A stretch of 18,019 nucleotides of DNA, taken from NCBI GenBank assembly GCA_964519935.1, contig CAZFLQ010000048.1, positions 1-18,019 of the forward strand, in the 5' to 3' direction. The notes under the pieces were generated by a model. The model made no database searches. It saw only the letters and a program-made list of their open reading frames with translations, and was not told where the DNA came from. Shown piece by piece: positions 1 to 18,019 of this stretch (position 1 is the first letter of the stretch; each line of letters begins with the position of its first letter). Source of the DNA: an uncultured Puniceicoccaceae bacterium. Lineage in GTDB: Bacteria > Verrucomicrobiota > Verrucomicrobiia > Opitutales > Puniceicoccaceae. The translations under genes and the position numbers were made by a program.

Positions 1-14
1 GAGGGGTTCGGCAA

Positions 15-35
15 CCACACGCTGGAAGCGTGTGG
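15..35 (-). terminator. Possible weak intrinsic terminator hairpin downstream of comF
   Basis: Perfect 8-bp GC-rich inverted repeat CCACACGC-tggaa-GCGTGTGG, 36 nt past the comF stop. On the minus strand it is followed only by 'UUGCC', so the U-tract is poor. Confidence 0.25.
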
Positions 36-70
36 GCACTGTAGCGACACGGATTTTGTGTGTGGGCGGG

Positions 71-1581: not shown

Positions 1582-2879
1582 CTTTTGGATACAATATAAT
1601 CGTGGGAGGATTTTTCCTGAATCCGGAGGAGGGCGGAGGATGGGTGGAGGGAGGCGAGGATTTCCCCGATAAGGTAAATGGATCCGGTTACAACTGTCGG
1701 GCGGGCGGGATCGGAGCGGTGGTCGCGGGCAAAGTCGGCAACGGTGGATTCGGTGACCTTTCGGGGGAAGTTTCCGGGGATGAGGGATCGGAGAGTGGCG
1801 GTGGGAACAGCTTTTGGTTGGTCGGGGGCGAGGAGGATTAATTCGCTGGCGAAGGGGAGGACGGTCTCAATGAGGGATCGGGCACGGTCGAGCCCGAGGG
1901 ATCCGATCGCGCAGGGGACGGCCTGGCCGACCCGGTTGGCAAGGTCGCGGAGGTTTTCGGCGAGGGCAGCGCAGCCCTCGGGGTTGTGGGTCGCATCGAG
2001 GATGACTGGGCCGATCGGGGAATCGACCTCCTGCCAGCGAGCGGGCCAGTGAACAGACCGGAAGCCGCGTTCGATTGCGGCGGGCGGGCAGGGGAGGATT
2101 GGGCGGACAGCGTGAAGGACGAGAAAAGCGGTCGCAGCGTTGCGGCGCTGAACCCTCCCGGGAAGATTGGTGAAGGGATAGAGGCTTTCGTCGGAACCAA
2201 AGTAATCTTCAACCGAAATGACGGGAGCCTGGCGGGAGGCGGCGATGGTGCGGATGGTGGATTCGGCGGGCGGTGGAAGACGCCCGATGGTGAGGGGAAT
2301 CCCGGTTTTGACAATACCGGCCTTTTCGGTCGCGATGGCCTCGAAGGTATCGCCGAGGATCTCGGTGTGGTCGAGCCCGATTGAAGTGATCGCGGTGGCG
2401 ACCGGTGTGACGATGTTGGTGGCATCAAGGCGTCCGCCGAGGCCGGTTTCGAGGACGGCGACCTCGACCCCACGCCGGGCGAAGGTGAGGAGGCCCATCG
2501 CGGTGATGTATTCGAAAAAGGTTGGATGATCGTCGGTGGCGAAGGGGGCGATGGATTCGGCCGCCCGGCGAACCATTTGGAAGGCATCGAGGAGGGCGTG
2601 ATCGCCGAGGGGTGATCCGCTGATTTCGATCCTCTCGCCGAGATGAACGAGGTGTGGGGAGGTAAACAGTCCGACCCGGTAACCTGAGGCGGCGAGAGCG
2701 GAGCGGAGGATGGCGCAGGTCGAACCCTTTCCGTTTGTCCCGGCGACGTGGAGAATCGGGTATTGGAGGTGAGGGTTCCCGAGGGCGGCAGCGAGGGCGC
2801 GCATCCGGTCGAGACCCAATTTGGATCCGCGGTTCCGAAGGGCGTAGAGGTCGTCGAGAACCGCCTTCAGGTCATGCAT
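1578..2879 (-). CDS. folC: Bifunctional folylpolyglutamate synthase / dihydrofolate synthase (Mur-ligase family)
   Basis: 'HVAGTNGKGST' P-loop typical of the Mur ligase/FolC family. Length about 433 aa. Lies immediately downstream of accD, as in the E. coli accD-folC arrangement. Confidence 0.85.
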   Translation of the reverse strand: MHDLKAVLDDLYALRNRGSKLGLDRMRALAAALGNPHLQYPILHVAGTNGKGSTCAILRSALAASGYRVGLFTSPHLVHLGERIEISGSPLGDHALLDAFQMVRRAAESIAPFATDDHPTFFEYITAMGLLTFARRGVEVAVLETGLGGRLDATNIVTPVATAITSIGLDHTEILGDTFEAIATEKAGIVKTGIPLTIGRLPPPAESTIRTIAASRQAPVISVEDYFGSDESLYPFTNLPGRVQRRNAATAFLVLHAVRPILPCPPAAIERGFRSVHWPARWQEVDSPIGPVILDATHNPEGCAALAENLRDLANRVGQAVPCAIGSLGLDRARSLIETVLPFASELILLAPDQPKAVPTATLRSLIPGNFPRKVTESTVADFARDHRSDPARPTVVTGSIYLIGEILASLHPSSALLRIQEKSSHDYIVSKR

Positions 2880-2930
2880 GATTTTGGGTTTGGGACCTCT
2901 GGAGAGAGGGGTTGCGAGGGGCCGGAAGGG

Positions 2931-3806
2931 TTAGCCGGTAACGTCGGCGATCTCTTCTTTGCCGAGGCCGGTAAACTGTGCGAGGAAGCGGGTGAGGCGC
3001 ATCTTGATCTCGTGCCGGGGAACGATTTGGTCAATCAGCCCACGGTCGAGAAGGAATTCGGAAGTCTGAAATCCCTCGGGGAGATCCTGCTGGGTGGTTT
3101 CCTTGATAACGCGGGGACCGGCGAAGCCAACGAGGGCACCGGGTTCGGCGAGGATGAGGTCACCAAGGGAGGCAAAGCTGGCCATGACCCCGGCCATCGT
3201 GGGGTTGGTCAGGATGGAAATGTAGGGCAGGCCGAGACGGGAGAGGCGGCCGAGGGCGGCGCTGGTTTTGGCCATTTGCATGAGGCTGAGGATGCCCTCA
3301 TACATCCGGGCACCGCCGGAGGTGCTGACGATAATGACAGGAGTTTTCATCTCAACCCCGCGTTCGATGCAGCGGGTGATTCTTTCGCCGACGACCGACC
3401 CCATGCTGGCACCGAGAAAACGAAAATCCATCACGGCGAGGTTAATGCGGATGCCGCTGAGGTCTCCGTAGCCGGAGAGGACGGCATCGGAAATGCCGGT
3501 CTTCTTTTCGTATTGGGCAAGCTTGTCGGGATAGGCACCGGAGGGACCGCGGAACTTGAGGGGATCGCAAGAGCGAAGGCCGCCATCGGTCTCGGTCCAG
3601 GTTTCTTCATCGATGAGGGAATTAATGCGGGCGGGAGCGGGGAGGGGAAAGTGATAGCCGCTCTTTGGGACGACCATCAGGTTTTGCTCCAACTCCTTGT
3701 TGTAAATGATCTCGCCGGAAATCGGGCATTTGCTCCAGAGGCCTTTAGGGATGTCCTTTCGGGAGACGGTGACGCGGGAATACTGTGGTTTACTGAAAAG
3801 TGGCAT
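2931..3806 (-). CDS. accD: Acetyl-CoA carboxylase carboxyltransferase beta subunit
   Basis: Carboxyltransferase core ('GGARMYEG', '[13 protein letters not shown]') and an AccD-type N-terminus '[20 protein letters not shown]'. Only one of the four zinc-finger Cys is retained. Confidence 0.9.
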
Positions 3807-3911
3807 CGGATTGAATCCTGAATGATTGGTCGTGTAGTCAAGGGCTTGGGATTGGTGAGATCAACCTTTTAGACCCTCGGTGTTTTCGCTTGTCGGTTGC
3901 GGGTGCGGTGA

Positions 3912-4967
3912 ATGGAGTTGGGAGAAGTGCGATTTCAGAAAACGGTTTTGGATTCCCTCGTAACGGCGTTGCCGGAGGAGGTATGGACCTCGGAGGCGAT
4001 TGAGGAGCGGTTGGCTCCGGCTTACGCGCGGGCAGGTTTGCAGCGCGGGCGGATCGAATTGATGACAGGCATCCGCGAGCGCCGGATGTGGGCAGAAGGA
4101 ACCCGTCCGAGCGCAGCCTCGGCGATGGCGGTGAATCGTTTGTTGGATTCTGTGGGGGTGGATCGGGAGAAGATCGATATTTTGATGCACACGGCGGTGA
4201 GCCGGGATCGATTGGAACCGGCGACGGCAGCGACGGTACACCGTCTGGCGGGCCTCGGAGGGGGATGTCAGATTTTCGATCTGTCGAATGCCTGTCTGGG
4301 ATTTTTGAATGGGCTCCTGGTGGCGGCGGCTTTTGTGGAATCGGGGCAGGCGGATCGGGTTCTGGTCGCAGCGGGGGAGAATGGCCGCCCGCTGGTGGAG
4401 GGGACGATCCGTGCCTTGAACGCAAAGGAGGATTTGAACCGGCAGAGAATCAAGCCCTGGTTCGCAAATCTGACGGTCGGTTGCGGGGCGGTGGCGGCCC
4501 TGGTTTGTCGGGAGAATCTGGCAACAACGGTCCATCCCGTCCGGTTGCGGGGCGGAAGCGGGGAAACGGACACGCGTTATTCCGAGCTTTGCGAGGGGGA
4601 TGCGTCGGGTGAGGAGTTGGTGATGGCGACGGATTCGGAGGAGTTGCTGGTGGCGGGAATCGGGGTGGCCGGGCGTTCGTGGGATCGGTTTTGTGAGGAA
4701 ATGGAGGTGGATGCGGGTAGTTTTGAACGGATCGTTACCCATCAGGTGGGCCGGGCGCATCAACGGGAACTTTATCGGGGGCTGGGTCTGGATCCGGCAC
4801 TGGATTATCCGACCTTTCCGGTCCTCGGGAACGTTGGGTCGGTATCGTGTCCGGCGACATTGGCGATGGCGATGGAGGCGGGAGCGGTCGTCGCGGGGAA
4901 TCGGGTCGCTTTGCTGGGGATCGGGAGTGGATTGAGTTCGGTGATGCTGGACGTGGAGGTTCTATGA
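3912..4967 (+). CDS. FabH-like thiolase (beta-ketoacyl-ACP synthase III family; OleA-like candidate)
   Basis: KAS III architecture: 'MTGIRERR' near the N-terminus, active-site Cys context 'FDLSNACLGF', 'VTHQV' (His) and 'GNVGSVSCP' (Asn). The stop overlaps the start of the downstream hydrolase. Confidence 0.8.
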   Translation: MELGEVRFQKTVLDSLVTALPEEVWTSEAIEERLAPAYARAGLQRGRIELMTGIRERRMWAEGTRPSAASAMAVNRLLDSVGVDREKIDILMHTAVSRDRLEPATAATVHRLAGLGGGCQIFDLSNACLGFLNGLLVAAAFVESGQADRVLVAAGENGRPLVEGTIRALNAKEDLNRQRIKPWFANLTVGCGAVAALVCRENLATTVHPVRLRGGSGETDTRYSELCEGDASGEELVMATDSEELLVAGIGVAGRSWDRFCEEMEVDAGSFERIVTHQVGRAHQRELYRGLGLDPALDYPTFPVLGNVGSVSCPATLAMAMEAGAVVAGNRVALLGIGSGLSSVMLDVEVL

Positions 4968-5860
4968 AGCACTGGAATCGGGAATTACCGGATCGGCTAA
5001 AGGTGCTGTATCCGTTCGAGCGCCGTTATTTTGAGCATCCGGACGGTGCCCGTCAGCACTACGTCGATGAAGGCGACGGGGATACGGTTGTGCTAATGGT
5101 GCATGGAAATCCGAGCTGGTCGTGGTTGTGGCGGGATCTTATTTTGCGCCTTCGGGGGAGCTATCGCTGCGTCGCGGTGGATCATATTGGGTGCGGTCTA
5201 TCGAGTCGGCCGGGGCGGGAATATGGGTATACGCTGGAGACGCACATCGCCAACCTCCGGCGTTTGTTGGATTCGTTGGAGTTTTCGAAGATTCACCTCG
5301 TGGTCCATGACTGGGGTGGGCCGATCGGTCTGGGGGCGTTGATGGGGCTGGGGGAAAAGTTGGATCGTGTGGTGATCACGAATACCTCGGCCTTTCCGAT
5401 GCGGGTGGGGGATTGGAAGATCGAAATCTGCCGAAAACCCTGGATTGGACCGCTATTGTCGGCGGGTTTGGGACTTTTTCCGAAAGGGGCGGTTCGCAAG
5501 GCGGTCGTTCATCCAATGGCGGAGGGAGTGGCGGAGGGATTTCTATTCCCCTATCGGCGGGCCTCGGAACGTCGGGCGATTGGAGCATTTGTTCGCGATA
5601 TCCCGGTCGGGCCACGGCATCCGACCTGGTCGACTCTAAAGCAGGTGGAAAGTTTTCTGCCGTCGTTGCGGGAGCGGGAGGTCCTCCTGCTTTGGGGAGG
5701 GCGGGATTTTTGTTTTGACGCGCGTTTTCTAAACGAGTGGCGGGATCGTCTGCCGGACGCGCGGGTTGAGTGGTATGGAGATGCGGGCCACTATGTGTTG
5801 GAGGATGCGGGCGAGGTAGGAATCGACGATATCGCGGGTTTTTTGGGAGTACCGGATTGA
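4964..5860 (+). CDS. Alpha/beta hydrolase, haloalkane-dehalogenase-like (OleB-like candidate)
   Basis: 'HGNPSWSWLWR' and nucleophile-elbow 'VHDWGGPIGLG' match the HLD/OleB-type fold. I place the start at ATG 4964, which overlaps the upstream stop (ATGA). The longer upstream ORF in the track is G-rich and implausible. Confidence 0.8.
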   Translation: MKHWNRELPDRLKVLYPFERRYFEHPDGARQHYVDEGDGDTVVLMVHGNPSWSWLWRDLILRLRGSYRCVAVDHIGCGLSSRPGREYGYTLETHIANLRRLLDSLEFSKIHLVVHDWGGPIGLGALMGLGEKLDRVVITNTSAFPMRVGDWKIEICRKPWIGPLLSAGLGLFPKGAVRKAVVHPMAEGVAEGFLFPYRRASERRAIGAFVRDIPVGPRHPTWSTLKQVESFLPSLREREVLLLWGGRDFCFDARFLNEWRDRLPDARVEWYGDAGHYVLEDAGEVGIDDIAGFLGVPD

Positions 5861-5960
5861 TTTGAGATCTGAAAACACGGGGGCGACCTTTTCGTAGAGT
5901 CGGGTTGGTTCTTGCAGTTGGGGGAAGGTTCGGGCAGGGTGGAGGGTTTAGGTTAAATTC

Positions 5961-7130
5961 ATGAGTGTGCGCCGTTTTGTTTCCAGCCATGTAGCCGATT
6001 TGCCCCGATCCGGGATCCGGGATTTTTTCGCGATCGTTGCGCAGATGCCGGAGGCCATTTCGCTCGGAATCGGCGAGCCTGATTTTGTGACCCCGTGGCA
6101 CATTCGGGAGGCGGCGATCTATGCTCTCGAACGGGGCAAAACCTATTACACGGATAACCGGGGGCTGCTCTCTTTGCGAAAGGAAATTTCGCGCTATGTG
6201 GAGGGCTTTTTCGGGGTTGGCTACGATCCGGGGGAAGAGATCCTCGTGGCGGTGGGTGTTTCCGAAGCTCTTGATCTGGCATTGCGGGCGGTCCTGAATC
6301 CGGGAGACAAGGTGATTTACCATGAACCCTGTTATGTCAGCTACAGTCCGAGTATTGTGTTGGCGCATGGCGTTCCGGTCGGGGTGGCGACGACCCCGGA
6401 GGAGGGCTTTACGCTGCGGCCGGACCGGTTGATCGAGGCCTGGGAACCGGGATGCAAGGTGCTGATCCTGAATTTTCCGACCAACCCGACGGGCGGGACG
6501 GTAGGTCGGGATTCTCTGGAGGCGATTGCCCGGTTTGTGATCGAAAAGGATCTCCTGGTGATCTCGGACGAGATTTATTCGGAGCTGACCTACGATGGCG
6601 AACACAGCAGTATTGCGGCCCTGCCGGGGATGCGGGAGCGGACCCTGCTGTTGCACGGGTTTTCAAAGGCCTTTGCGATGACCGGGTTTCGGATCGGGTA
6701 TGGATGCGGACCGGCTGAACTGATTGAGGCGATGATGCGCGTCCATCAGTATTCGATGCTGTGTGCGCCGATTCTGAGCCAGGAGGCAGCGATCGAAGCG
6801 CTCCGTAACGGGGCGGAGAGCGTTGCGATGATGCGTGACCAGTATCGGCAGCGCCGGGATTTTATCGTGCGGCGGTTCCGGGAATGTGGTCTACCCTGCC
6901 ATCTGCCGAACGGAACCTTTTATGCCTTTCCGGAGATCGGGGGGACGGGGATGGACGAGGTGGCTTTTGCGAGAGGGTTGTTGGAGACAGAGAAAGTCGC
7001 AATGGTTCCGGGGACTGCCTTTGGGCCGACCGGGGCAGGGTATGTCCGGGCGAGTTTCAGCACGAGCTACCGGCGGATTATCGAGGCGACCGAACGGATC
7101 GAGCGCTATGTTGGAGAGGTATCCAAATAA
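5961..7130 (+). CDS. PLP-dependent aminotransferase, class I/II (AspC-like)
   Basis: 'LGIGEPDF', 'NFPTNPTG' and the PLP-lysine context 'HGFSKAFAMTGFRIGY'. Length 389 aa. Confidence 0.85.
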   Translation: MSVRRFVSSHVADLPRSGIRDFFAIVAQMPEAISLGIGEPDFVTPWHIREAAIYALERGKTYYTDNRGLLSLRKEISRYVEGFFGVGYDPGEEILVAVGVSEALDLALRAVLNPGDKVIYHEPCYVSYSPSIVLAHGVPVGVATTPEEGFTLRPDRLIEAWEPGCKVLILNFPTNPTGGTVGRDSLEAIARFVIEKDLLVISDEIYSELTYDGEHSSIAALPGMRERTLLLHGFSKAFAMTGFRIGYGCGPAELIEAMMRVHQYSMLCAPILSQEAAIEALRNGAESVAMMRDQYRQRRDFIVRRFRECGLPCHLPNGTFYAFPEIGGTGMDEVAFARGLLETEKVAMVPGTAFGPTGAGYVRASFSTSYRRIIEATERIERYVGEVSK

Positions 7131-8566
7131 TGAATACAGATGCAGGTGAACGGCAGGTTGTTCTGGTCGGACGTCCGAACGTGGGGAAGAGCCGATTGTT
7201 CAATCGTCTGGCGGGGAAACGAATTTCGATTGTCCATGACCTGCCGGGGGTGACCCGCGATATTGTGACCCATCCGCTGAAAGGTGGACGGGTGCTTGTG
7301 GACACGGGGGGACTGGGGCTGGTCGAGGGGGCGACCCCGGAGGTGCTGCGGGAGGCTGTGGAGACGCAGGTTTTTGTGGCGACGGAAACGGCCAGTCTGA
7401 TTCTTTTCGTACTCGACGTGCGCGAGGGGCTGACTCCGCTCGACGAGGAGATTGCGATGGAGTTGCGAAAGGCGCGCTGTCCGGTCCGGGTGGTTGTGAA
7501 CAAGTGCGATACGGAGGCACTCGATTTACGGGCGCTGGACCTCGGGAAGATTGGTTTTGGGGATGTCGCGCCGGTTTCGGCGGAGCATGATCGGGGAATT
7601 CGGGCACTGGAAAAATGGATCTTTGATGTGGTTCCGGCGGTTGAGGATGCGGCATCGGAGGAGGATCTCGATGCGCATCGGGTGTCGATCTGTTTTGCGG
7701 GAAAACCGAATGTCGGGAAATCCTCGTTGACCAATCGGTTACTGAAGGCGGAGCGGGTGATCGTGAGCGATGTGCCGGGGACGACGCGGGACGCGGTGCA
7801 GTTCAATCTCGATTGGACGACGCCGAACGGTCGGGAGTTTCTGTACCGTCTGCACGATACGGCGGGTTTGCGGGCAAAGCGGAAGATCGATTCGTCGATC
7901 GAGTATTTTTCGGCTTTGCGGACGAAGGAGGCGGTCGAGCGGAGCGATGTGGTGGTGTATCTACTTGACGCCCTGACAGGAGCGACGAAGCAGGACCAGC
8001 GTTTTGTCGGGGACGTTCTGGAGGCGGGTCGGGGTATGGTTCTGGCAGTGAACAAGTGGGACCTTGCGCTGGAAAGCTTTGCGACCGGTGGGGTGGATGG
8101 ATTTACCGATGAGAATGCCTTCACGAGGGCCTACGAGGCAGCACTGCGGAGAGAATTGTTCTTTTTGCCGGAGTGCCCGATCGTCTTTCTTTCCGCGATG
8201 GAGGGGCACGGAATCGACGCCATGATGACGGCGGTGCGGAAGGTTCACCGCGTGCAAAATACCCGTCTGGCGACGGGACCGTTGAACCGTAAAATTGGTG
8301 AGTTGTTCGAGGCAAATCCGCCGAAGGCGAAGGATGGCAAGCGCTTCAAGCTGTACTACACCGTTCAGACGGGGGTGGCGCCGATCAGCCTGAAGGTCTT
8401 TTGCAACAACCCGAAATTGCTCGACGACTCGTTTCGGAGGTATCTTGAAAAGGGATTGGTTAGCGGCTTCAAGCTGACGGGGGCGCCTCTGGCGATGAGG
8501 TTTGTCGGGAAAAGCCGGGAGAAAAACCCCTTTGTGTCGGCATCGGGCAAGCCGCTGAGAGGTTGA
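7130..8566 (+). CDS. der: Ribosome-associated GTPase Der (EngA)
   Basis: Two tandem GTPase domains ('GRPNVGKS' ... 'GKPNVGKSSL') plus a C-terminal KH-like region. The ATG at 7130 overlaps the aminotransferase stop (TAATG). The longer in-frame ORF in the track is a G-rich artefact. Confidence 0.9.
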   Translation: MNTDAGERQVVLVGRPNVGKSRLFNRLAGKRISIVHDLPGVTRDIVTHPLKGGRVLVDTGGLGLVEGATPEVLREAVETQVFVATETASLILFVLDVREGLTPLDEEIAMELRKARCPVRVVVNKCDTEALDLRALDLGKIGFGDVAPVSAEHDRGIRALEKWIFDVVPAVEDAASEEDLDAHRVSICFAGKPNVGKSSLTNRLLKAERVIVSDVPGTTRDAVQFNLDWTTPNGREFLYRLHDTAGLRAKRKIDSSIEYFSALRTKEAVERSDVVVYLLDALTGATKQDQRFVGDVLEAGRGMVLAVNKWDLALESFATGGVDGFTDENAFTRAYEAALRRELFFLPECPIVFLSAMEGHGIDAMMTAVRKVHRVQNTRLATGPLNRKIGELFEANPPKAKDGKRFKLYYTVQTGVAPISLKVFCNNPKLLDDSFRRYLEKGLVSGFKLTGAPLAMRFVGKSREKNPFVSASGKPLRG

Positions 8567-8836
8567 GGTCGCAGACATCCTGGTCTGGATGGAATTGGAA
8601 TGAACCTAAACGTTCGCGTGTCCGATTCTGGGCGCGACGAAAGAGCGGGCTTTCGAGTTTGATGAAGTTTTCCAAATCGAAATCGCTATCGGGTCTCGAA
8701 TCAGGGGAAGGCGAATCGATTTCGATCCCGATCCCGATTTCGACCAATAAGGAACCATAAAAGGCAGCCATCTTCAATGGTCAGGCCGACCCCTCGATCA
8801 TGAAGCCAGGCCCGGACATCGTGGTTTGGAGTGTGC

Positions 8837-8955
8837 GGGGCGCCGAAAAGGGATTGCAAATCCCTTCTCCATAGGGGGCGCCGAAAAGGGATTGCAAATC
8901 CCTTCTCCATAGGGGGGCGCCAAAAAGGGATTGCAAATCCCTTCTCCATAGGGGG
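8837..8955. repeat. Three tandem ~38-39 bp direct repeats, each with a perfect 8-bp inverted repeat (AAGGGATT-gca-AATCCCTT)
   Basis: Unit 'GGGCGCCGAAAAGGGATTGCAAATCCCTTCTCCATAG' occurs three times head-to-tail, with hairpins at about 8848-8866, 8886-8904 and 8925-8943. Confidence 0.9.
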
Positions 8956-8990
8956 TGGAGTCGGTGAGCGGACCTCCTGCGGTGGGCGTG

Positions 8991-10388
8991 TCAGGAGTTG
9001 GGTGGGGTTTGGTCGGGGTTTTGCGGGGGTGCGGTCGTGGGGACTGTTGGGTTGCCCATTTTCCCGAGAAATTCGGGGAGTTCGATCCCGACGTTGCGGG
9101 TTAGGTCGTGGATCGGGGGAATGGCCCCGGCGAGTCCGGAAACAAAGGAGGCGGTAGAGTTTTTGCCGTCGGCCCCGCGCCCGCCTTCCCAAACGGTGAT
9201 GTTGCCGATTTCGAGGTTGGAGATTGCCTTGACCTGTTCGGCAACGAGTTCGGGCAGTTTTTCGGTGATCATGAGGAGGGCAGCGAGTTCGGCGTTGCCT
9301 CCGGCGGCCTCGACGACCTTGGCGAGACCAGCGGCCTTTTCCTCGAGTTCGGAGCGGTTGCCCTTGGCCTCGGCCTCCATCATGGAGCGGATACCGTCGG
9401 CCTGACCCTGCTTCTCGATGCGGATCTTCTGAGCCTCGGCCTCGGCGAGGGTCTCGATCCGCTCCTTTTCGACGAGGGCGGGGACGACAACGTTGGCCTT
9501 TTGGGTGGCGCGGTCGCGTTCGGCGCGCTGGACCTCGGCGGTCTGCTCGGCGGCGTAAGCTTCCTCGAGGGCGCGGGCGCGGGCGACCTTTTCGGCGGCG
9601 GAGGCAGCGCGTTCGGCCTCGGCCTCGCGGGTACGGCGTTCAGAATTGGAGTTGGCGATTTCGACTTTGGAGAGGTTTTCCCCGGTGGTGGCCTCGGCGT
9701 CGGCACTGGCAACGGAAATCCGTTTGTCGCGATCGGCGCTGGCCGAACCGACCTCCCCGTCCCGGTTGGCCATGGATACTTTGACCTTGGCTTCATTGAT
9801 CGCTTTGCTGGAAGCCTCCTGGCCGAGGGCATCGATGTAGCCGGATTCGTCGGTAATGTCCTGAACGTTGACGTTAATCAGTCGCAGTCCGACTTTTTTG
9901 AGTTCGACCTCGACCCCGTTGGAAATGTTTTCAATCAGCTTGTCGCGGTCGGCGTTGATTTCCTCGATGTCCATCGTCGCGATGACAACGCGCATCTGGC
10001 CGAAGATGATATCCTTGGCAAGCTCCTTGATCTCGGTCAGGCCGAGTCCGAGAAGCCGTTCGGCGGCATTTTCCATCACCCCGGTTTCGGTCGAGATCCC
10101 AACGGTGAAAGTGGAGGGCGTGTTGACCCGAATGTTTTGTTTGGAGAGCGCACCCTGAAGGTTGATGTCAATCGGGAGGGGGGTGAGGTCGAGGAACTGG
10201 TAGTCCTGGATCACCGGCCAGATGAAGGAAGCACCACCATGGTAGCAGCGGGCAGACTCTCCGCCGCTAACTTTACCGTAAACGACAAGGATGCGGTCAG
10301 AGGGACAGCGTTTGTAGCGGGAGGCGAACGCAATGAGCGTTCCGAAAAGCGCGAGGGCAATCGCGACGAGGAAGATGAGGATGTCCAT
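8991..10388 (-). CDS. Flotillin-like SPFH/band-7 domain protein (YqiK/FloT family)
   Basis: N-terminal hydrophobic anchor 'MDILIFLVAIALALFGTLIAF', an SPFH domain, then a long E/A-rich coiled-coil ('EAEAERAASAAEKVARARALEEAYAAEQ'). The ORF also reaches an upstream ATG at 10499, but that N-extension is P/R-rich and would overlap the nfeD-like gene. Confidence 0.8.
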   Translation of the reverse strand: MDILIFLVAIALALFGTLIAFASRYKRCPSDRILVVYGKVSGGESARCYHGGASFIWPVIQDYQFLDLTPLPIDINLQGALSKQNIRVNTPSTFTVGISTETGVMENAAERLLGLGLTEIKELAKDIIFGQMRVVIATMDIEEINADRDKLIENISNGVEVELKKVGLRLINVNVQDITDESGYIDALGQEASSKAINEAKVKVSMANRDGEVGSASADRDKRISVASADAEATTGENLSKVEIANSNSERRTREAEAERAASAAEKVARARALEEAYAAEQTAEVQRAERDRATQKANVVVPALVEKERIETLAEAEAQKIRIEKQGQADGIRSMMEAEAKGNRSELEEKAAGLAKVVEAAGGNAELAALLMITEKLPELVAEQVKAISNLEIGNITVWEGGRGADGKNSTASFVSGLAGAIPPIHDLTRNVGIELPEFLGKMGNPTVPTTAPPQNPDQTPPNS

Positions 10389-10443
10389 GGGAGGTGTGGG
10401 TCGGTGGGTTTTGGTTCTTTGCGGATCGGTATTCGAGAGAAAA

Positions 10444-11034
10444 TCAGACGACGGTTGTGGCGGTGGTCTCGGACACGACCGAGACGGCGTTGTTGCCAAT
10501 CACACCGACGATCTCGACGCGGGTGCGCGGGGGGATTTCAGAACTTTCGTCGGTGTAGGCGTCGATGATGCTGAGCCGGTTCTGGACCATGACCTCGACC
10601 TGTCCGGCTCCGCTGCGGGCGGCGGGAATGCGGATGTAAACCGAACCTCCGTTCCCGATCGCATTGTGGATGTCGATTGTTCCGGTGGTTTGAAGACGCA
10701 TCAGCAGCAGCATCACCCCGTAGATCGCAAACATCAGGGTGAGTCCAGACAGGGTCGCCCAAATCAGGGCAACCGGAAGGGAGGCACCCTGATTGAGAGC
10801 GATTCCGCCAACCCAGCCGAAGCCAGTGAAAAAGGCGGTGACGGTACGAAATGAAAGGATCCCAAGCCCAGTGGTGTGATCGGTGGCGGCACCGATGTCG
10901 GGCAGATCGGTAGAGTGTCCGCCGATCCCGATGATTGAAAGAATCAGATCGAAGAGCATCAAAGCAAGGGAGACAATGCCGATGCCGTAAAGAAGCTGTT
11001 TCTCGAAATCGAGACTGATCCACCAGTCAACCAT
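10444..11034 (-). CDS. NfeD/YqiJ-like membrane protein (flotillin-associated)
   Basis: Three predicted TM helices followed by a beta-rich OB-fold-like C-terminus ('GSVYIRIPAARSGAGQVEVMVQNRLSIIDAY'). Sits immediately upstream of, and co-oriented with, the flotillin gene, as in yqiJ-yqiK and yuaF-floT operons. Confidence 0.7.
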   Translation of the reverse strand: MVDWWISLDFEKQLLYGIGIVSLALMLFDLILSIIGIGGHSTDLPDIGAATDHTTGLGILSFRTVTAFFTGFGWVGGIALNQGASLPVALIWATLSGLTLMFAIYGVMLLLMRLQTTGTIDIHNAIGNGGSVYIRIPAARSGAGQVEVMVQNRLSIIDAYTDESSEIPPRTRVEIVGVIGNNAVSVVSETTATTVV

Positions 11035-11271
11035 GGGGTAAATTCACGATGGGGAGAACCTAGTGGTTCCTGTTCGGGATCGTCGATGGAAAATTCCGGT
11101 GTTTCCGGAAAGCTGACGAAATCGACACATGGATGGCGTCGAGGATCTTTTTGCGCGGGTTCGGGATTAAGCCCCCCGGTGTCTTGCGGGAACTCTGGCC
11201 TAGCCGGGGGATGGTGGTGACCTCCGATTGCGTTTGCGGTTGGCGAATTTCAACAATTACTGTCGAGAAGA

Positions 11272-12345
11272 ATGGATTTTGAATCAATCAACGGCTTAAT
11301 CGGGGACTATGAGGCTTGGCATGAGGCCTCGGTTGAACGGTTCGTGGGCCGTTTGCGCGAGGCTGAGGGGGTTGATCCGGTGATCGGGCGTTTTGGGGAG
11401 TATCTCCGGAGGCCGGGAAAGCGACTGCGTCCCCTGTTGTTGATTCTGGCGGCGGAGGCTGGTGGGTGTGGAGATCGTGGGATGGTGATGCCAGCAGCGT
11501 TTTCGGTCGAGGCGTTCCACACCTTCATCCTGATTCACGACGATGTCATTGACGAATCAGCCTCCCGCCGGGGCCGCCCGAGCCTTCATCGCGATCTTGT
11601 CGACGGGCTGGGGATGCCGTTGCGAAGGGGTGAGAGCCTGGCGGTTGTTCTGGGGGATCTCCTCTATGGCTATGCTCTCGAGGTACTCAATGAAGTAACG
11701 GCGGGACCGGGAATACGGGCGACAGCAATCCGGTATTTTTCGCGGGTTATTCAGGACACCGGGCTGGGGGAGGCGCTGGAGCTGAGCCTGGCGGAGCGTC
11801 CTCTGGCAGATGTGACGGAGGCGGCGATTGAGACCGTTTACCAGCTCAAGACGACCCGCTACACCTTCGAAGCACCGCTAGTTCTGGGGGCTGTTCTGAG
11901 CGGCCTGCCGGATGGTGCGCAGGAAGTTCTCGAACGGTATGCCCGCCCGGTGGGTAGGGCTTTTCAGATCGCGAATGATTTGCACGAGATTCGGGAAGTG
12001 ATCGAGGGGCGGACGGAGCTGGCCTACGATCTCTCGGGAGAGATTCGAACTCTCTATATGCTTCGGCTGATGGCGGCGGTTGGGGCGGGGGACGTTGAGC
12101 AAGTGGAACGTTGGGCAGGCGGTGAGGGAGAAGGGATAGCCGGGATTGTCGGACTTGTCCGAAGCGACAAAGGCGTGGAAATCTACGGGTCGCTGCGGGA
12201 GGAGGTTCTCGAGGGGTTCCGTCAGGGCAGGCAAATATTGGCGGCGGCAATAGACGAAGGGATTTTGCCGATCCGGTTTGCGTCAATTGCCGATCTTGTC
12301 GAGGCAAGGTTCGAGCACAGCGAGGCATTTGTATCCAAAAAATGA
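11272..12345 (+). CDS. trans-Isoprenyl diphosphate synthase (polyprenyl synthetase) family protein with degenerate second Asp-rich motif
   Basis: 'GKRLRPLLLILAAE' and an intact first Asp-rich motif 'LIHDDVIDESASRRGRPS', plus 'YQLKTTRYTFEAP'. The second motif is 'FQIANDLHEIRE', not DDxxD. The stop overlaps the polB start. Confidence 0.75.
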   Translation: MDFESINGLIGDYEAWHEASVERFVGRLREAEGVDPVIGRFGEYLRRPGKRLRPLLLILAAEAGGCGDRGMVMPAAFSVEAFHTFILIHDDVIDESASRRGRPSLHRDLVDGLGMPLRRGESLAVVLGDLLYGYALEVLNEVTAGPGIRATAIRYFSRVIQDTGLGEALELSLAERPLADVTEAAIETVYQLKTTRYTFEAPLVLGAVLSGLPDGAQEVLERYARPVGRAFQIANDLHEIREVIEGRTELAYDLSGEIRTLYMLRLMAAVGAGDVEQVERWAGGEGEGIAGIVGLVRSDKGVEIYGSLREEVLEGFRQGRQILAAAIDEGILPIRFASIADLVEARFEHSEAFVSKK

Positions 12346-14510
12346 ATACAAATGACGAATGCCTGGTCGGTCTCTGGGTTGATCCTGACGGGATCGTGAG
12401 GGAGGCCTGGAGGGATCGTTCGGGGCGGCGGACGGACCGGGAAGCCCGACTGTCTCCGCCGGTTTGGTGCAGTGCGGGGATTGCGGAAGAGTGGGAGCAG
12501 CGTGGCGGTGGGGGCACGGTCGTTGCGCTGGAAGGGGCGGGGGTCCTTGATCGGCGGATTACCTTTGGGGATCCGGCCGGGGCGGAGGCGTTTTTGAAGG
12601 AGCACCGGGGAACGGCCGAGGTGGAGGCATTGCGTCCGGCCGAGCACGCCTGGCTGGTGTTGAATCGCGGCCGGTTTTTCGAGGAGGGCACCTTGCGGCG
12701 TGTTCGGCGTTTGCAGTTGGATATCGAGACCGCAACGGGCGAGGGGAGGGCGTTCAGTGATCCGCACGAGCCGGAGGACCGGGTTCTCGCGATTGGGCTG
12801 AGGTTTGAGGGACGGAATGAGATCCTCGATTTGGGGGAAGAAACGGACGCGGCTGAGAGGGGGCTGCTGAAGCGGTTCGCCGAGCGTTTGTGTGAGATCG
12901 ATCCGGACACGATGGAAGGGCACAATATTTTCCGGTTTGACCTCGAATACCTGCGCGAGCGGTGTCGGCGTTATCGGTTAAAGCCAGAGTGGGGTCGGTT
13001 TGGGGAGATTGCCCGTTTTCGAAACAGCCGGATTCGGATCGCGGAACGGACGGTGGATTTCCCCCGCTGTGACGTTCCCGGTCGGACAGTGGTGGATACA
13101 TTTTTGTTGGTCCAGATTCACGATACGACCTCGCGGGAGCTGGAGGGCTACGGGCTGAAGGATGTCGCGGTGGCCTTTGGGGTAACCGATCCGGATGCGG
13201 GGGAACGGACCTATCTGCGGGGGGAGTTGATTGCGGATGCCTGGCGACGGCAGCGGGATGTGTTCCGGAAATATCTCGAGGATGACCTCCGCGAGACCGA
13301 GGGGGTGGCCTCGGTTTTGCTGCCGACCTATGTGGCACAGTGTCCCAACTTTCCGATGACGTTGCAGGAGATACTGCTTCGAGGGACGGCGGCGAAGGTT
13401 GATTCGGTTTTCCTCGAGGCGTATCAGCATGCGGATCAGGCTCTGCCAGTTCCGGGCAGTATCGAGCGATTCGAGGGTGGGTATAGCGGGAGTTTTGAGA
13501 CCGGGGTTTTCCGGCCGGTTTACCACTATGACGTGGCATCGCTCTACCCGAGCCTGCTATTGCAGATCGGGAGGAATCCGGTGGGGGATGACCTCGGGAC
13601 GTTCATCCCGACCCTCGAGCGGCTGCGGGCGGCCCGGCTGGAGTTCAAGCGAAGGGCGAGGGAGTCTACGGATCCGGAGGATGTGCGGGACTATGGGGCG
13701 CGTCAGGCGAGTTTCAAGATTCTGATCAATTCGTTTTACGGGTATCTCGGCTTTGCCGGGGCGCGTTTTGCGGACGGGAAACTGGCGGCAGAGGTTACCC
13801 GCCGGGGCCGGGAGCTGATCAAGCATTTGATTGGGGAATTGGGAGGGCTGGGGGTACGGATTCTGGAGGCGGACACGGACGGGATTTATGTGTGTCCGGA
13901 TGGCTATGCAGGTGGACCGGAGGACCTGTTGGGGGATCTTTCGGCGCGGTTGCCGGAGGGGATTGATCTGGAGTTGGGAGGCGTTTACGAGGCAATGTTC
14001 TGCTACAAGGCGAAAAACTACGCTCTCGCGACGGATGTTGGGATGGTGGTGCGGGGATCGGCCCTGCGCTCGCGGGGTACAGAGCCCTTTTTGCGGGAGC
14101 TGACGAGGCACTATTTAGCGGAGCGGCTCGGCCTCGAAACCCGTTCGACGCTCGACCTGGTCGAGGAAATGGGAACCGAAATCGAGGAACAGCGGATGCC
14201 GGTCGAGCAGTTGGCGAAGGCGGAGCACCTCGGGATGTCACCGACGGTCTACCGGAGCGGGGTAGAGGCTGGAACGAAGACCCGGCGGGCGGCACTGGAG
14301 GCGGCCTTGGGGATCGAGCCGCTCCCGAAACAGGGGGATCGGGTGGCCTATTACCTGCGAGAGGGTGATCGGTCGGAAAAGGCGGATTGGCAGCGGGCGG
14401 TTCCGGTTGAGGCCTACGATCGGGAGAGATGTCCCTATGATGCGGGTGCCTATCTGAAAAAGTTGCGGGCTTGGGCGCGGCGGTTTCCGCTCGAGCCGGA
14501 ACTGTTTTAG
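12342..14510 (+). CDS. polB: Family B DNA polymerase (DNA polymerase II-like) with 3'-5' exonuclease domain
   Basis: Exo I 'LDIETAT', Exo II 'HNIFRFDLEYL', Exo III 'YLEDD'; polymerase motif A 'YHYDVASLYPSLL', motif B 'KILINSFYGYLGF', motif C 'EADTDGIYV'. Length 722 aa. Confidence 0.85.
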   Translation: MNTNDECLVGLWVDPDGIVREAWRDRSGRRTDREARLSPPVWCSAGIAEEWEQRGGGGTVVALEGAGVLDRRITFGDPAGAEAFLKEHRGTAEVEALRPAEHAWLVLNRGRFFEEGTLRRVRRLQLDIETATGEGRAFSDPHEPEDRVLAIGLRFEGRNEILDLGEETDAAERGLLKRFAERLCEIDPDTMEGHNIFRFDLEYLRERCRRYRLKPEWGRFGEIARFRNSRIRIAERTVDFPRCDVPGRTVVDTFLLVQIHDTTSRELEGYGLKDVAVAFGVTDPDAGERTYLRGELIADAWRRQRDVFRKYLEDDLRETEGVASVLLPTYVAQCPNFPMTLQEILLRGTAAKVDSVFLEAYQHADQALPVPGSIERFEGGYSGSFETGVFRPVYHYDVASLYPSLLLQIGRNPVGDDLGTFIPTLERLRAARLEFKRRARESTDPEDVRDYGARQASFKILINSFYGYLGFAGARFADGKLAAEVTRRGRELIKHLIGELGGLGVRILEADTDGIYVCPDGYAGGPEDLLGDLSARLPEGIDLELGGVYEAMFCYKAKNYALATDVGMVVRGSALRSRGTEPFLRELTRHYLAERLGLETRSTLDLVEEMGTEIEEQRMPVEQLAKAEHLGMSPTVYRSGVEAGTKTRRAALEAALGIEPLPKQGDRVAYYLREGDRSEKADWQRAVPVEAYDRERCPYDAGAYLKKLRAWARRFPLEPELF

Positions 14511-14534
14511 ACCACGACGGCGGTAAGTTGAGAA

Positions 14535-15977
14535 TCAGTTTTCTCCGAGTGTATCCGATTCGATATGACGCAGTTGAACGGTGTGAATAATCTTCGAACG
14601 GCGGAGGACGTTCGTGATGGTAACGATCCAATCCCCCTTAAAGACCCACTGCCCTTTCATGAGGATGTTGATGGCGTCGGTGATGGTGACATCGCGTTCT
14701 TCCGAGAATTCCATCAGGAAAGGTTCAACTCCCCAGATCATCGTTAATTGGCGAAAGAGAACCGGATTGTCGGTGAAGGCGAAAATCGGGGTATGGAGCG
14801 GTCGCAGCGAGGAGAGAAGCTGGGCAAGCTGTCCGCTGCGGGTAAAGACAAGGATGGCTGAATTTTCGAGATCGTCAGCGAGGACGGTGGCGGAACGAAT
14901 CATCTTGTCTTTGGGAGTCTTGAGAACGAGTTCATCGCGTAGACGGCGTTCGGACTGGGCCTCAAGACGTTCGGAGATCCGCTTGAAGACGCGGACGCAT
15001 TCGATAGGATATTCCCCGACGGTGGTTTCGCCGGAGAGCATCAGACAGTCAGTCTGTTGCGAGACGGCGTGGGCGACATCAGCGACCTCCGCGCGGGTCG
15101 GAACCGGAGCATTGGTCATCGATTCGAGCATGTGGGTGGCAACGATGGCGGGTTTGAAGCTACGGATGCACTTTTCGACAGCGCGTTGCTGAATGATCGG
15201 AATCTCCTCGTAGGGGCATTCGATCCCGAGATCGCCACGGGCGACCATTATTCCGTCAGATGCGGAGATGATCTCGTCAAGATTCGAGATTCCCTGCTGG
15301 TCCTCGATTTTCGCAATGATTCGGGCCTGGGAGCCGAGCTCGTTCAAGTAGCGGCGGAAGATGTCGAGATCATCGGCCTCGCGGACAAAGGAGAGGGCAA
15401 AGAGATCAATCCCCACCTCGACACCGACGGCGACATCGCCGCGGTCTTTCTGAGTGAGGCAAGGGAGGCTGACGCGAACGCCGGGGAGGTTGATGTGGCG
15501 TTTTGAGCCGAGTTTGCCGCCGATGGTAACCTCGCAGTGGATGCGACCTTCTGATTTGCCGAGAACGACAAAGCGGATCAGCCCGTTGTCGACGAGGACG
15601 GTATCACCAGCAGACAGATCATCGATCAACTTTTCGTAATTGACCGGAACACAAAGCGTGCCGTCGATAAAACCGCTGTCGTCGTTGACGGTCAGATCAA
15701 TTTTTTGCCCTTCTTTGATCTCGACTGCGTTTTCGAGTTTGCCGGTGCGGATTTCGGGGCCCTTGACATCCATCATGACAGCGATTTCGCGTCCAACCTC
15801 GGCACTGACCTTGCGAACGCGGGCGACGATCGCCCGCGTCCAGTCGTGGTCGGCATGGGCCATGTTGATCCGACAGACATCGACCCCCTCGAGAATGAGC
15901 CGTTTGAGTTGTTCCTCGCTCTCGGTGGCAGGGCCGATCGTGAAGATGATTTTGGTGTGGCGGTAGCGTCGCGGCAT
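14535..15977 (-). CDS. pyk: Pyruvate kinase
   Basis: N-terminus 'KIIFTIGPATESEEQLKRLILEGVDVCRINMAHADHDW', then 'MMDVKGPEIRTGK' and 'MVARGDLGIE'. Length 480 aa. Confidence 0.9.
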   Translation of the reverse strand: MPRRYRHTKIIFTIGPATESEEQLKRLILEGVDVCRINMAHADHDWTRAIVARVRKVSAEVGREIAVMMDVKGPEIRTGKLENAVEIKEGQKIDLTVNDDSGFIDGTLCVPVNYEKLIDDLSAGDTVLVDNGLIRFVVLGKSEGRIHCEVTIGGKLGSKRHINLPGVRVSLPCLTQKDRGDVAVGVEVGIDLFALSFVREADDLDIFRRYLNELGSQARIIAKIEDQQGISNLDEIISASDGIMVARGDLGIECPYEEIPIIQQRAVEKCIRSFKPAIVATHMLESMTNAPVPTRAEVADVAHAVSQQTDCLMLSGETTVGEYPIECVRVFKRISERLEAQSERRLRDELVLKTPKDKMIRSATVLADDLENSAILVFTRSGQLAQLLSSLRPLHTPIFAFTDNPVLFRQLTMIWGVEPFLMEFSEERDVTITDAINILMKGQWVFKGDWIVTITNVLRRSKIIHTVQLRHIESDTLGEN

Positions 15978-16165
15978 GGTGTCGTGGATTTGAAATTAGG
16001 AAGTCAGTAGTATCGTTGAGTTGGCAGCAAGTCTTGTCCCAACTTGGATGTTTCAGAATCTTTTCCGGATTGAAACCGGGAAGTTTAGCGCGGCTTTCGA
16101 GATTCCGGCAGTCTGTTCAAGAGTTGGCGTATTTCCGAGACAGGGTAGTGGAACGATTCGGGAGA

Positions 16166-17995
16166 TCATTTCCGTCTCCCGGCAGGAAGCCAAAACGTGA
16201 AGGACGTTCCCTGCGGGGTTGAGTGGTTCAGGTGGATATCGCCACGGTGTCCGCGGAGAATGCTTTTAACGATAGCCAGCCCGAGACCGGTGCCGCCCTT
16301 GCGGTGGGTGAGGAAGGAATCAAAAATCCGGGGTTGAAGGTCGGGGGGGATTCCGCCCCCGCTGTCCTCAATTGTGATCTGGACGCGTTTTTCTTTTTTA
16401 AGGACGGTTGTTTCGATGCTGAGAGAACCGGGGCCTTCGATCGCCTGAACGGCATTGAGGATCAGGTTAAGGAGGACTTGTTGGATTTGTCCGCGATGGG
16501 CGGAAACGATCGGCTCGGTCGGGGCGGGGTTGTAATTGAGATGAATTCGGCTCTGATAAAGTTTGATTCGAACTAGTTGAAGGGTCTCGGCGATAACGGT
16601 GTCGAGATTGAGGGTGCTGAATTGCCCGCTTTTGGATCTTCCGTAGGTTAGGAATCGGCTGGCAATCTCTTCGAGTTGATCGAGTTTCTCGCGAATAACG
16701 CGGATATCCTGCAGGCGCATGTCACCCTCGGGAAGGTCGAGTTTGAGGGAGTTGAACAGTAACTTGATGACCGTGAGGGGGCTACGGATCTCGTGGGCGA
16801 GCTCGGAGGAAAGTTGACCGAGGGTCGTGAGTTTTTCGTTTCGGCGGAGAATTTCCTCGGATTCGAATATCCGGCTGTAGAGGCGGCTGTTCTCAATCGC
16901 GACGGCACCAAGGCTGGCGAGAGCAGTGAAGACCTGTTTCTCGTCGTTGTTAAAGCGGTGGGGTCGGCGAGTATAGGCATTGAGAATCCCGATAATTTCT
17001 TTTTCGTAAACGATGGGGGTCGCGAGCATTGAGGTCAGCCCGAGGTTCTGGGTGAGGTCGACAAAGTGATGTTCCTCGGTTTTGGCGAGATCGTGAACCT
17101 CGACCTGTTTGCGGCGACGGATCCCGGCACCGATCGAGCTCTCGTCAATATGAAGATCCTCGTGATATTCGAATCTGCCATCGGCAGTAAAAAGGGAGTG
17201 AAGGCGGAGGACGCTCTCGTTGGGGCTGAGGATGAAGAGGGCGGTAGCGTCGCAATTCATGAGGGCGCGAGCCTCTTCGGCGATACTGTCGAGGACATTG
17301 CCGAGTTCTTTTTTGGACACCACCTTCTGGCCGATCTTGACGAGTAATTCCATCTGTTTCGCACGGACACGGAGTTGGCGAAGAGCCCAGATTTGTCCGA
17401 TGACGCGGGATGCTTCACGGGTCAGAAGGGTGATAATCTTGAGATCGTCGGTGGTGAAGGCATCAGGACGGTCGCTGTCGACGTTAAGCACCCCGATTAC
17501 CTGGCCCTGATCCTCGAGAGGGACGGCAATTTCGGATCGGATGCCCTCGCGGATTTGAACGTAGCGGGGATCCAGCTCGGTCCGGGGGACAACCAGCGGG
17601 CGGTGATGAAGAGCGACCCATCCAGTGATCCCTTCGCCGAGAGCAAGCGCAATCGGGTAATCAGAGGGAGGGAGACCGCTGGCGGCCTCAATGACCAGTC
17701 TCTTGGTATCCGGATCAATCAGGGAGATGGAGGCACTTGAACCACCGAGGACGGAGACAACCGTGTTGAGGACGAGGGACAGAGCCTCCTTGGGGTCTTC
17801 GGTTTTTCCGACGAGACTGCTGATCCGGTAAAGCGAATCGATCAGCGAAGAGGCATCATCGGAAAGTGGTCCATTTTCGGGCATCGCAGGACGGAGTCTT
17901 GCGACCGATAAAAGGATGACAACGCAATTAGACGGATCTGGTTGACAGAACCCTCGACAAGATGGACGGCGAAAGGGGTCAAACCAATGTTTCAT
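16166..17995 (-). CDS. Cytoplasmic sensor histidine kinase with two GAF domains (GAF-GAF-HisKA-HATPase_c)
   Basis: Two GAF-like regions, the H-box 'ELAHEIRSPLTVI', and ATPase N/G boxes ('LILNAVQA', 'DSGGGIPPD', 'GGTGLGLAIV'). No TM segments. An in-frame ATG at 17884 is an alternative start. Confidence 0.8.
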   Translation of the reverse strand: MKHWFDPFRRPSCRGFCQPDPSNCVVILLSVARLRPAMPENGPLSDDASSLIDSLYRISSLVGKTEDPKEALSLVLNTVVSVLGGSSASISLIDPDTKRLVIEAASGLPPSDYPIALALGEGITGWVALHHRPLVVPRTELDPRYVQIREGIRSEIAVPLEDQGQVIGVLNVDSDRPDAFTTDDLKIITLLTREASRVIGQIWALRQLRVRAKQMELLVKIGQKVVSKKELGNVLDSIAEEARALMNCDATALFILSPNESVLRLHSLFTADGRFEYHEDLHIDESSIGAGIRRRKQVEVHDLAKTEEHHFVDLTQNLGLTSMLATPIVYEKEIIGILNAYTRRPHRFNNDEKQVFTALASLGAVAIENSRLYSRIFESEEILRRNEKLTTLGQLSSELAHEIRSPLTVIKLLFNSLKLDLPEGDMRLQDIRVIREKLDQLEEIASRFLTYGRSKSGQFSTLNLDTVIAETLQLVRIKLYQSRIHLNYNPAPTEPIVSAHRGQIQQVLLNLILNAVQAIEGPGSLSIETTVLKKEKRVQITIEDSGGGIPPDLQPRIFDSFLTHRKGGTGLGLAIVKSILRGHRGDIHLNHSTPQGTSFTFWLPAGRRK

Positions 17996-18019
17996 GATTT
18001 TTGAATTGCCTTGGCCTTA

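Follow-up and report, generated by a model that had tools for sequence, protein, structure and literature searches.

The stretch of DNA analyzed here (the window; 18,019 bp on contig CAZFLQ010000048.1 of an uncultured Puniceicoccaceae bacterium) is a fragment of a bacterial chromosome that carries ordinary housekeeping genes. Two of its genes overlap at their junction. The upstream one encodes a homolog of the trans-isoprenyl diphosphate synthases (trans-IPPS) with an unusual second metal-binding motif, and the downstream one, polB, encodes a family-B DNA polymerase. The closest named relatives of both proteins are found in metagenome-assembled genomes (MAGs) of the Puniceicoccaceae and other Opitutales. 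The unusual motif is the signature of a whole Verrucomicrobial clade of synthases, and the window protein is probably an active short-chain enzyme producing farnesyl diphosphate (FPP) or geranylgeranyl diphosphate (GGPP). Its position next to polB, in turn, is likely the result of a recent juxtaposition of two unrelated genes. The coordinates of all features are listed in Table 1.

In sequence and predicted fold, the synthase has nearly all characteristics of the trans-IPPS superfamily. It is matched by PF00348 with 129.1 bits (cut-off 27) over residues 41–242, and this is the only Pfam family detected on the protein at E<=0.01. The first aspartate-rich motif (FARM), the RRG at residues 99–101, the GKRxRP, KT (KTT at residues 193–195) and FQ regions, the fold and the profile hidden Markov model (HMM) all agree with membership. 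The canonical second aspartate-rich motif (SARM), DDxxD or DDxxN/G, is absent; at its position stands NDLHE, which lies within FQIANDLHEIRE in the translation of 11272–12345. The AlphaFold 2 (AF2) model of the protein has a predicted local distance difference test (pLDDT) score of 92.5. When this model was compared to the Protein Data Bank (PDB) with Foldseek, the best 50 matches were all trans-IPPS, with template modeling (TM) scores of 0.64–0.79, and no terpene synthase was present among them.

A word-indexed search over 5.8 billion proteins yielded ~76 close homologs of the synthase with scores of at least 127 bits; beyond these, the scores fall off steeply to those of generic polyprenyl synthases. 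When 49 of the close homologs were aligned, N235, D236, L237 and E239 proved invariant, as did G49, K50, R53, P54, D90, D91, D94, R99, R100, K193, T194, F231 and Q232. As the catalytic and the IPP (isopentenyl diphosphate)-binding residues are conserved alike, the whole apparatus is under purifying selection. Phe85, at the chain-length-determining position five residues before the FARM, is invariant in the same alignment. In type-I short-chain synthases, a Phe at this position limits the products to C20 or shorter.

An exhaustive profile search over 1.84 billion representatives clustered at 50% identity gives the same picture. Nearly all matches of about 300 bits or more read FQxxNDLx followed by E, or rarely by D, A, K, S or G, and canonical DDxxD or DDxxG motifs occur only below that score. 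In a crude neighbor-joining tree, the 124 sequences in the ND state, including the window protein, form a single clade without DD-state members. The named genomes bearing the ND motif all belong to the Verrucomicrobiota, i.e., the cultured Cerasicoccus maritimus and members of the Opitutales, Chthoniobacterales, Verrucomicrobiae and Methylacidiphilales. DDxxD is present in a homolog from Kiritimatiellae and in the outgroups. A scan of genome contigs returned at least 80 loci, mostly generic IPPS, with about nine Verrucomicrobial ones among those listed. A literature search on Verrucomicrobial IPPS or ispA returned nothing specific. Judged from these sequences, ND-L-x-E is an old and selected clade signature and not the product of decay. 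The first Asp of the textbook second metal-binding motif is thus an Asn across a phylum-wide Verrucomicrobial clade of ~130 sequences.

These results bear on a preliminary description of the locus. Its assignment of a trans-prenyltransferase fold, based on GKRLRP, DDVID, RRG and KT, is confirmed by the Pfam score and by the exclusively trans-IPPS fold matches, and NDLHE indeed replaces the second DDxxD at residues 235–239. The description also called this motif degenerate, a term that does not fit invariant residues in a clade-defining state. It proposed an alignment and phylogeny to see whether close homologs keep or lose DDxxD, and a structural comparison with terpene synthases and IPPS. Close homologs uniformly have ND-L-x-E, DDxxD being restricted to distant sequences, and the structural comparison placed the protein with the trans-IPPS.

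The gene context of the relatives provides a second line of evidence. In three loci from Chthoniobacterales and Verrucomicrobiae (L005, L006 and L007), the ND-clade synthase gene is directly followed by a crtI-family phytoene desaturase gene (TIGR02734, 610–638 bits). In L006 and L007, crtI is followed by a squalene/phytoene synthase gene (SQS_PSY), after which an acyltransferase gene is found in L006 (8001–12186); in L007 (8001–14304), a GT2 glycosyltransferase gene lies farther downstream and an acyltransferase gene was not identified. The full run of synthase, crtI, SQS_PSY, acyltransferase and GT2 is present in L167 (7001–12667), and in L166 the synthase gene precedes SQS_PSY. None of these carotenoid clusters contains a second IPPS gene. 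On the upstream side, L167 has a divergent thiH, and L006 and L007 carry a homolog of the thiH ORF of L005. The ND-clade synthase of these relatives hence sits in the crtE position of carotenoid clusters, and the gene set of L006, L007 and L167 suggests that acylated glycosyl carotenoids are produced. Other ND-clade synthase genes have housekeeping surroundings: aroK or thiH in divergent orientation upstream, a gene for isochorismate synthase on the downstream side, or hemC-hemD-trpF upstream.

A separate observation concerns the canonical FPP synthase gene. The arrangement in E. coli is xseB-ispA-dxs. In Actomonas aquatica (CP139781; L089, 1756–3987), xseB and dxs are adjacent, ~30 bp apart, with no ispA between them, an arrangement hinting at loss or relocation of the canonical FPP synthase in Opitutales.

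The second gene of the pair encodes a polymerase matched by PF00136 and PF03104. It has intact motifs for both the exonuclease and the polymerase (LDIET, NIFRFD, YGLKD, DVASLYPS, KILINSFYG, DTDG and KNYA). Of the seven motif patterns, six are conserved in 114–120 of 120 homologs, and the strict Exo III pattern in only 51 of the 120. At the C-terminus, ...EPELF is similar to a clamp-binding motif, and homologs carry a peptide of the Q-G-E-L-L/EPELF type. In the PDB, the protein is matched best by archaeal PolB (114 bits), with E. coli Pol II reaching only 58 bits, and it stays below the cut-offs of the Pol II equivalogs NF004421 (83 vs. 570), NF004422 (71 vs. 1103) and NF004420 (49 vs. 1435). 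The family comprises 3954 proteins at E<=1e-5; the best 120 of these are ~50–71% identical and full-length, and the named ones among them belong to Opitutales/Puniceicoccales. By its motifs and relatives, PolB is the conserved proofreading B-family polymerase of this lineage, a stand-alone Opitutales family. Many Verrucomicrobia lack Pol I, according to a 2026 survey, and PolB may have a larger role in those species.

Apart from the window, the two genes were found adjacent only in its closest sister (L082/L083), of which the synthase is 63% and PolB 71% identical to those of the window. No polB gene is present within the fetched flanks (~7–8 kb where the contig allows) of 13 other synthase loci (L001–L007, L017, L081, L084 and L165–L167), and no synthase gene lies beside polB at four other PolB loci (L086–L089). 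The neighbors of polB differ in all three distinct contexts that the latter represent: dapF and a Ser/Thr kinase gene in L086/L087, genes for an isocitrate/isopropylmalate-type dehydrogenase and a dienelactone hydrolase in Puniceicoccus, and a SirB-like gene and an ApbE-GT fusion in Actomonas. In the next relative, a Puniceicoccaceae MAG, the synthase and PolB are encoded on separate contigs in unrelated contexts. The order orf196-synthase-polB is colinear in the window and the sister, and the region 3′ of polB differs. A block of genes for a fabH-like β-ketoacyl-acyl carrier protein synthase III (KAS III; PRK09258), a hydrolase and an aminotransferase is located directly 3′ of polB in L082 (3410–5566); in the window it is found at 3894–6101, ~6 kb 5′ of the synthase gene. 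This difference in position indicates a rearrangement breakpoint right after polB.

At the junction itself, the TGA of the synthase gene (12343–12345) overlaps the ATG of polB (12342–12344), the sequence reading TCCAAAAAATGAATAC. The genes leave no space between them for a terminator, and none was detected, which makes co-transcription in this genome plausible. The 4-nt ATGA overlap would probably give such co-transcription, together with some translational coupling. In the preliminary description, this overlap (12342–12345), which is real, was noted as coupling an IPPS-like gene to a family-B polymerase gene, a linkage not known to its author, and absence of the adjacency in relatives was named there as an argument against such a linkage. 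Beyond the closest sister the adjacency is indeed absent. The pairing thus appears ordinary, with no shared function indicated by the sequences. There is no evidence for a prenyltransferase working with a DNA polymerase, and the pair does not represent a new functional linkage.

Altogether, we consider it likely that two unrelated housekeeping genes were juxtaposed recently and in a lineage-specific manner in a Puniceicoccaceae-like lineage, an active ND-clade short-chain synthase having come to lie beside a conserved PolB. The synthase is taken to be active because its relatives occupy the crtE position and because published D-to-N mutants retain coupling activity. One example is the D250N/N254S mutant of the geranylgeranyl diphosphate synthase (GGDPS) of Melampsora, which keeps ~40% of its GGPP synthase activity without acquiring that of a terpene synthase; for the latter, an IPP-binding Arg had to be lost (PMC7484799). 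Secondly, transIDS11 of Planococcus, which resembles FPP synthases (FPPS) and has NDYYD as its SARM, performs regular coupling, and a D308N mutant from Planococcus lost irregular activity but kept regular coupling (PMC10960109). The carotenoid context and these mutants indirectly support, by analogy, head-to-tail condensation of IPP by the ND clade. The enzyme would condense IPP with dimethylallyl diphosphate (DMAPP), geranyl diphosphate (GPP) or FPP to yield FPP and/or GGPP, which would then feed carotenoids, squalene-type lipids and quinone or heme prenylation. In such a mechanism, the Asp residues of the FARM would bind two Mg2+ ions with the allylic diphosphate, and Asn235 and Asp236 would take the place of the Asp pair as ligands of the third Mg2+, a role of which an Asn carboxamide is capable.

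Several elements temper this interpretation. The ND clade also lacks the conserved GK that is found a few residues past the SARM in other enzymes, and this loss, together with the D-to-N change, implies a diphosphate/Mg-B site that differs from that of a textbook IPPS. The NCBIfam equivalogs for GGPP synthase, CrtE and FPPS all score far under their cut-offs on the window protein, e.g., 78 bits vs. 460 for NF045685 (CrtE) and 92 vs. 500 for NF041003 (GGPP_syn). Enzyme activity across the clade is a prediction, and the housekeeping label for an FPP/GGPP synthase is presumptive. Lastly, the pair has been held together across the rearrangement downstream of polB, although this concerns two lineages and shared ancestry fits equally well.

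Besides regular chain elongation, other activities are conceivable. The first is irregular coupling, in parallel to chrysanthemyl diphosphate synthase, of which the first SARM Asp is also an Asn. PMC10960109, citing Liu 2012, links this very substitution to the evolution of irregular coupling, and the loss of the GK past the SARM in the ND clade would agree with such a change. However, the clusters containing the synthase encode a standard head-to-head SQS_PSY enzyme, for which regular FPP or GGPP is required, and hold no other IPPS. Moreover, it was the irregular and not the regular activity that disappeared in the D308N mutant (PMC10960109). We therefore hold irregular coupling to be very unlikely.

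A second candidate is an all-α-helical prenyltransferase of the ComQ/XiaM/Ord1/PalQ type, in which the FARM binds the prenyl donor and the pocket at a pseudo-SARM receives a non-isoprenoid acceptor. Such enzymes do combine a conserved FARM with a divergent pseudo-SARM, and they do not condense isoprene units (PMC12510300). In the ND clade, however, the IPP-binding GKRxR, RRG, KT and FQ elements are invariant in the 49 homologs, no genes for a peptide precursor (comX) or for indole terpenoids occur near any synthase locus examined, and the carotenoid clusters fit a precursor synthase. Little probability is therefore left for this type of activity.

Thirdly, the preliminary description considered a non-catalytic or terpene-synthase-like IPPS derivative, in which NDLHEIRE mimics the NSE/DTE triad and whose function is linked to that of the polymerase by translational coupling. 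The change of the first SARM Asp into Asn, followed by D-L as in N-D-(L/I/V), does recall this triad, fungal IDS-like terpene synthases arose from GGDPS with an NDLLSLSxD motif (PMC7484799), and the overlap with polB is genuine. The consensus (N/D)D(L/I/V)x(S/T)xxxE is nevertheless absent, as NDLHEIREV has an E at position 5 and a V at position 9. Position 5 is E, D, A, K, S or G among the 50%-identity representatives, and the residues that follow are not conserved in the family (e.g., NDLHEIGLL, NDLIEYHQF and NDLQEFARF). In the fungal enzyme, the D-to-N and N-to-S changes alone gave no terpene synthase, and the counterparts of the IPP-binding Arg residues are invariant here. Terpene synthases are absent from the best 50 fold matches, and the synthase-polB adjacency is not conserved. 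A non-catalytic protein is improbable as well, given the invariance of the other catalytic and IPP-binding motifs and the crtE slot held by the relatives. As a whole, this proposal deserves hardly any credence.

The same scant weight is given to a selected operon, for instance one in which the supply of membrane or isoprenoids is regulated jointly with DNA repair or replication: two lineages do keep the pair despite the rearrangement, with overlapping stop and start codons in the window and no terminator between the genes, but these are close relatives, the next one has the genes on different contigs, 13 synthase and four PolB loci are without the pair, and in the sister the genes are parted by an ordinary Shine–Dalgarno spacer.

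Having favored a recent juxtaposition of the genes for a probably active synthase and PolB, we turn to the overlap between them, which coincides with the oddest feature near the pair. The preliminary description had noted a conserved junction element, and this is borne out: the window contains three occurrences of a 20-mer core, GTATCCAAAnnATGAATACA, all at co-directional stop/start junctions, and 200 shuffled sequences contain none. The cassettes around this core are near-identical over ~20–30 nt and are located at three unrelated junctions within 18 kb. Each copy encodes ..VSK(K/R)* at the end of the upstream gene, an overlapping stop and start, and MNT(N/D).. at the beginning of the downstream gene. 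PolB homologs elsewhere do not begin with MNT. At the orthologous synthase-polB junction of the sister L082 the cassette is missing, and a 17-nt spacer with a GGGAGG Shine–Dalgarno sequence is found there. No match to the cassette was found in 89 loci searched. The ATGA overlap was brought in by this genome-specific junction cassette and is no sign of a shared function. One may go further and regard the cassette as a copy-propagating mobile or gene-converting 'translational-coupling module' that wrote the stop/start overlap, a doubtful but not negligible idea. If it is genuinely such a module, we know of no element of this kind that has been described.

Single metagenome matches to the core (75 in total) proved on inspection to be chance matches or in-frame coding sequence, e.g., in an AMP-ligase gene and a capsid-like gene. 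At the synthase-polB junction, a 10-bp stem formed by AGGCAUUUGU and ACGAAUGCCU (12323–12332 with 12355–12364) brackets the polB start codon with a 22-nt loop (−11.7 kcal/mol, z = −3.7). A conserved hairpin was rejected, as only this copy folds well and the other two do not. The cassette does not correspond to a known RNA in Rfam either.

One of the other copies lies at the start of der, of which the annotation deserves a remark. The mechanically called ORF spans 6884–8566, but the G-domain begins ~8 codons past an ATG at 7130, which shares 1 nt with the aminotransferase stop codon (TAATG). The true start of der is most likely this ATG.

Table 1. Features of the 18,019-bp window, with their positions and the basis of each assignment.
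Feature	Position	Strand	Basis and remarks
comF-like, truA, folC, accD	window	−	ORF map and HMM matches
Junction cassette copy	1565–1594	−	folC stop/truA start
fabH-like KAS III, α/β hydrolase, aminotransferase, der	window	+	ORF map and HMM matches
Junction cassette copy	7116–7142	+	aminotransferase stop TAA overlapping der start at 7130
Flotillin and orf196	window	−	ORF map; orf196 unassigned
Divergent intergenic region, 237 nt, 5′ of the synthase gene	11035–11271	.	ORF map; promoter of the two-gene unit presumed here
trans-Isoprenyl diphosphate synthase homolog, 357 aa, 'ND-L-x-E' clade	11272–12345	+	PF00348, alignment, AF2, Foldseek
Region I, GKRLRP (residues 49–54), with IPP-diphosphate-binding Lys and Arg	11416–11433	+	translation; G49, K50, R53, P54 invariant
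FARM, DDVID (residues 90–94)	11539–11553	+	translation; D90, D91, D94 invariant
Variant second metal-binding motif at the SARM position, NDLHE (residues 235–239), in place of DDxxD	11974–11988	+	translation, alignment
Junction cassette ATTTGTATCCAAAAAATGAATACAAATGACGA	12326–12358	+	synthase/polB; gives ..FVSKK*, the ATGA overlap and MNTN..
Family-B DNA polymerase gene (polB), 722 aa	12342–14510	+	Pfam and NCBIfam matches, motif check vs. 120 homologs
Weak terminator-like hairpin and T-run at the polB 3′ end, before the convergent pyruvate kinase gene	14481–14510	+	scan
Pyruvate kinase, GAF histidine kinase	window, downstream of polB	−	ORF map and HMM matches

A simple scan found no sigma-70-like site in the intergenic region 5′ of the synthase gene, and in a promoter and terminator scan of 10900–14700 the numbers of sites, including the hairpin at the end of polB, were not above those in shuffled sequences. 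An Rfam scan of the window matched no family, and no tRNAs were found. A reading of the synthase-polB pair as a defense system was discarded, as PADLOC gave no match for the synthase and, for PolB, just a generic one to a polymerase domain.

Between the convergent der and flotillin genes, three head-to-tail copies of GGGGCGCCGAAAAGGGATTGCAAATCCCTTCTCCATAG are present at 8837–8955, with a period of 38–39 nt and 98–100% identity; each copy holds a hairpin formed by AAGGGATT and AATCCCTT. The unassigned orf196 (10444–11034, minus strand) has no Pfam, NCBIfam or PADLOC match and lies directly upstream of the flotillin ORF, which it overlaps. Its start region is 91% identical in the sister locus L083, so that orf196 is probably a real gene. 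It occupies the slot where an NfeD-like flotillin partner might be expected. The window has a strongly positive GC skew over its whole length (1–18019; +0.09 to +0.33). As the genes are split roughly equally between the strands, this asymmetry tracks the DNA strand and not the coding strand.

Both proteins can be placed relative to known systems. Bacterial PolB proteins include E. coli Pol II (group G1) and the uncharacterised group G3 (PMC12926913). The window PolB shares with them the N-terminal domain, the DnaQ-like exonuclease, motifs A, B and C, and a C-terminal peptide resembling a clamp-binding motif. It differs from E. coli Pol II in its equivalog scores of only 49–83 bits and is closer to archaeal PolB.

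For the synthase, CrtE is the obvious functional counterpart, since relatives of the window protein hold the crtE slot directly 5′ of crtI and crtB/crtM-type genes. The window copy itself, however, is located outside a carotenoid cluster, with orf196 and polB as neighbors, and its SARM is non-canonical. ComQ, XiaM, Ord1 and PalQ resemble the window synthase in their IPPS fold, intact FARM and modified second motif. These enzymes prenylate indole or Trp without chain elongation and are encoded in quorum-peptide or indolosesquiterpene clusters, whereas in the family of the window synthase both the gene context and the conservation of the IPP site speak for chain elongation, a contrast drawn from motifs and gene context. 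Chrysanthemyl diphosphate synthase, the coccoid FPPS-like proteins and the Melampsora IDS-like terpene synthases have the same D-to-N change at the Mg-B ligand position. They belong to other IPPS subfamilies (eukaryotic FPPS/GGDPS) and are of independent origin, and their altered activities need extra changes, such as the loss of the IPP-binding Arg, that are not seen in the window synthase.

If the ND clade is active, motif filters based on DDxxD would mis-call such enzymes as degenerate. The clade would then also be a natural test case for the extent to which the SARM is required for Mg-B binding, with Cerasicoccus maritimus (ortholog at L001, 8001–9044) as a cultured member. The nearest sequences among solved structures are the GGPP synthase of C. 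glutamicum (3LK5, 177 bits) and Rv2173 of M. tuberculosis (8F8F, 156 bits). They share with the window synthase the fold (TM ~0.77), the FARM, the GKRxR, RRG, KT and FQ elements, a similar length and the C-terminal helices. Identity is only ~20–26%, and the GK past the SARM is present in both structures but not in the window synthase. Both are active enzymes in which the SARM is already reduced to DDxxG, where the window synthase has NDLxE.

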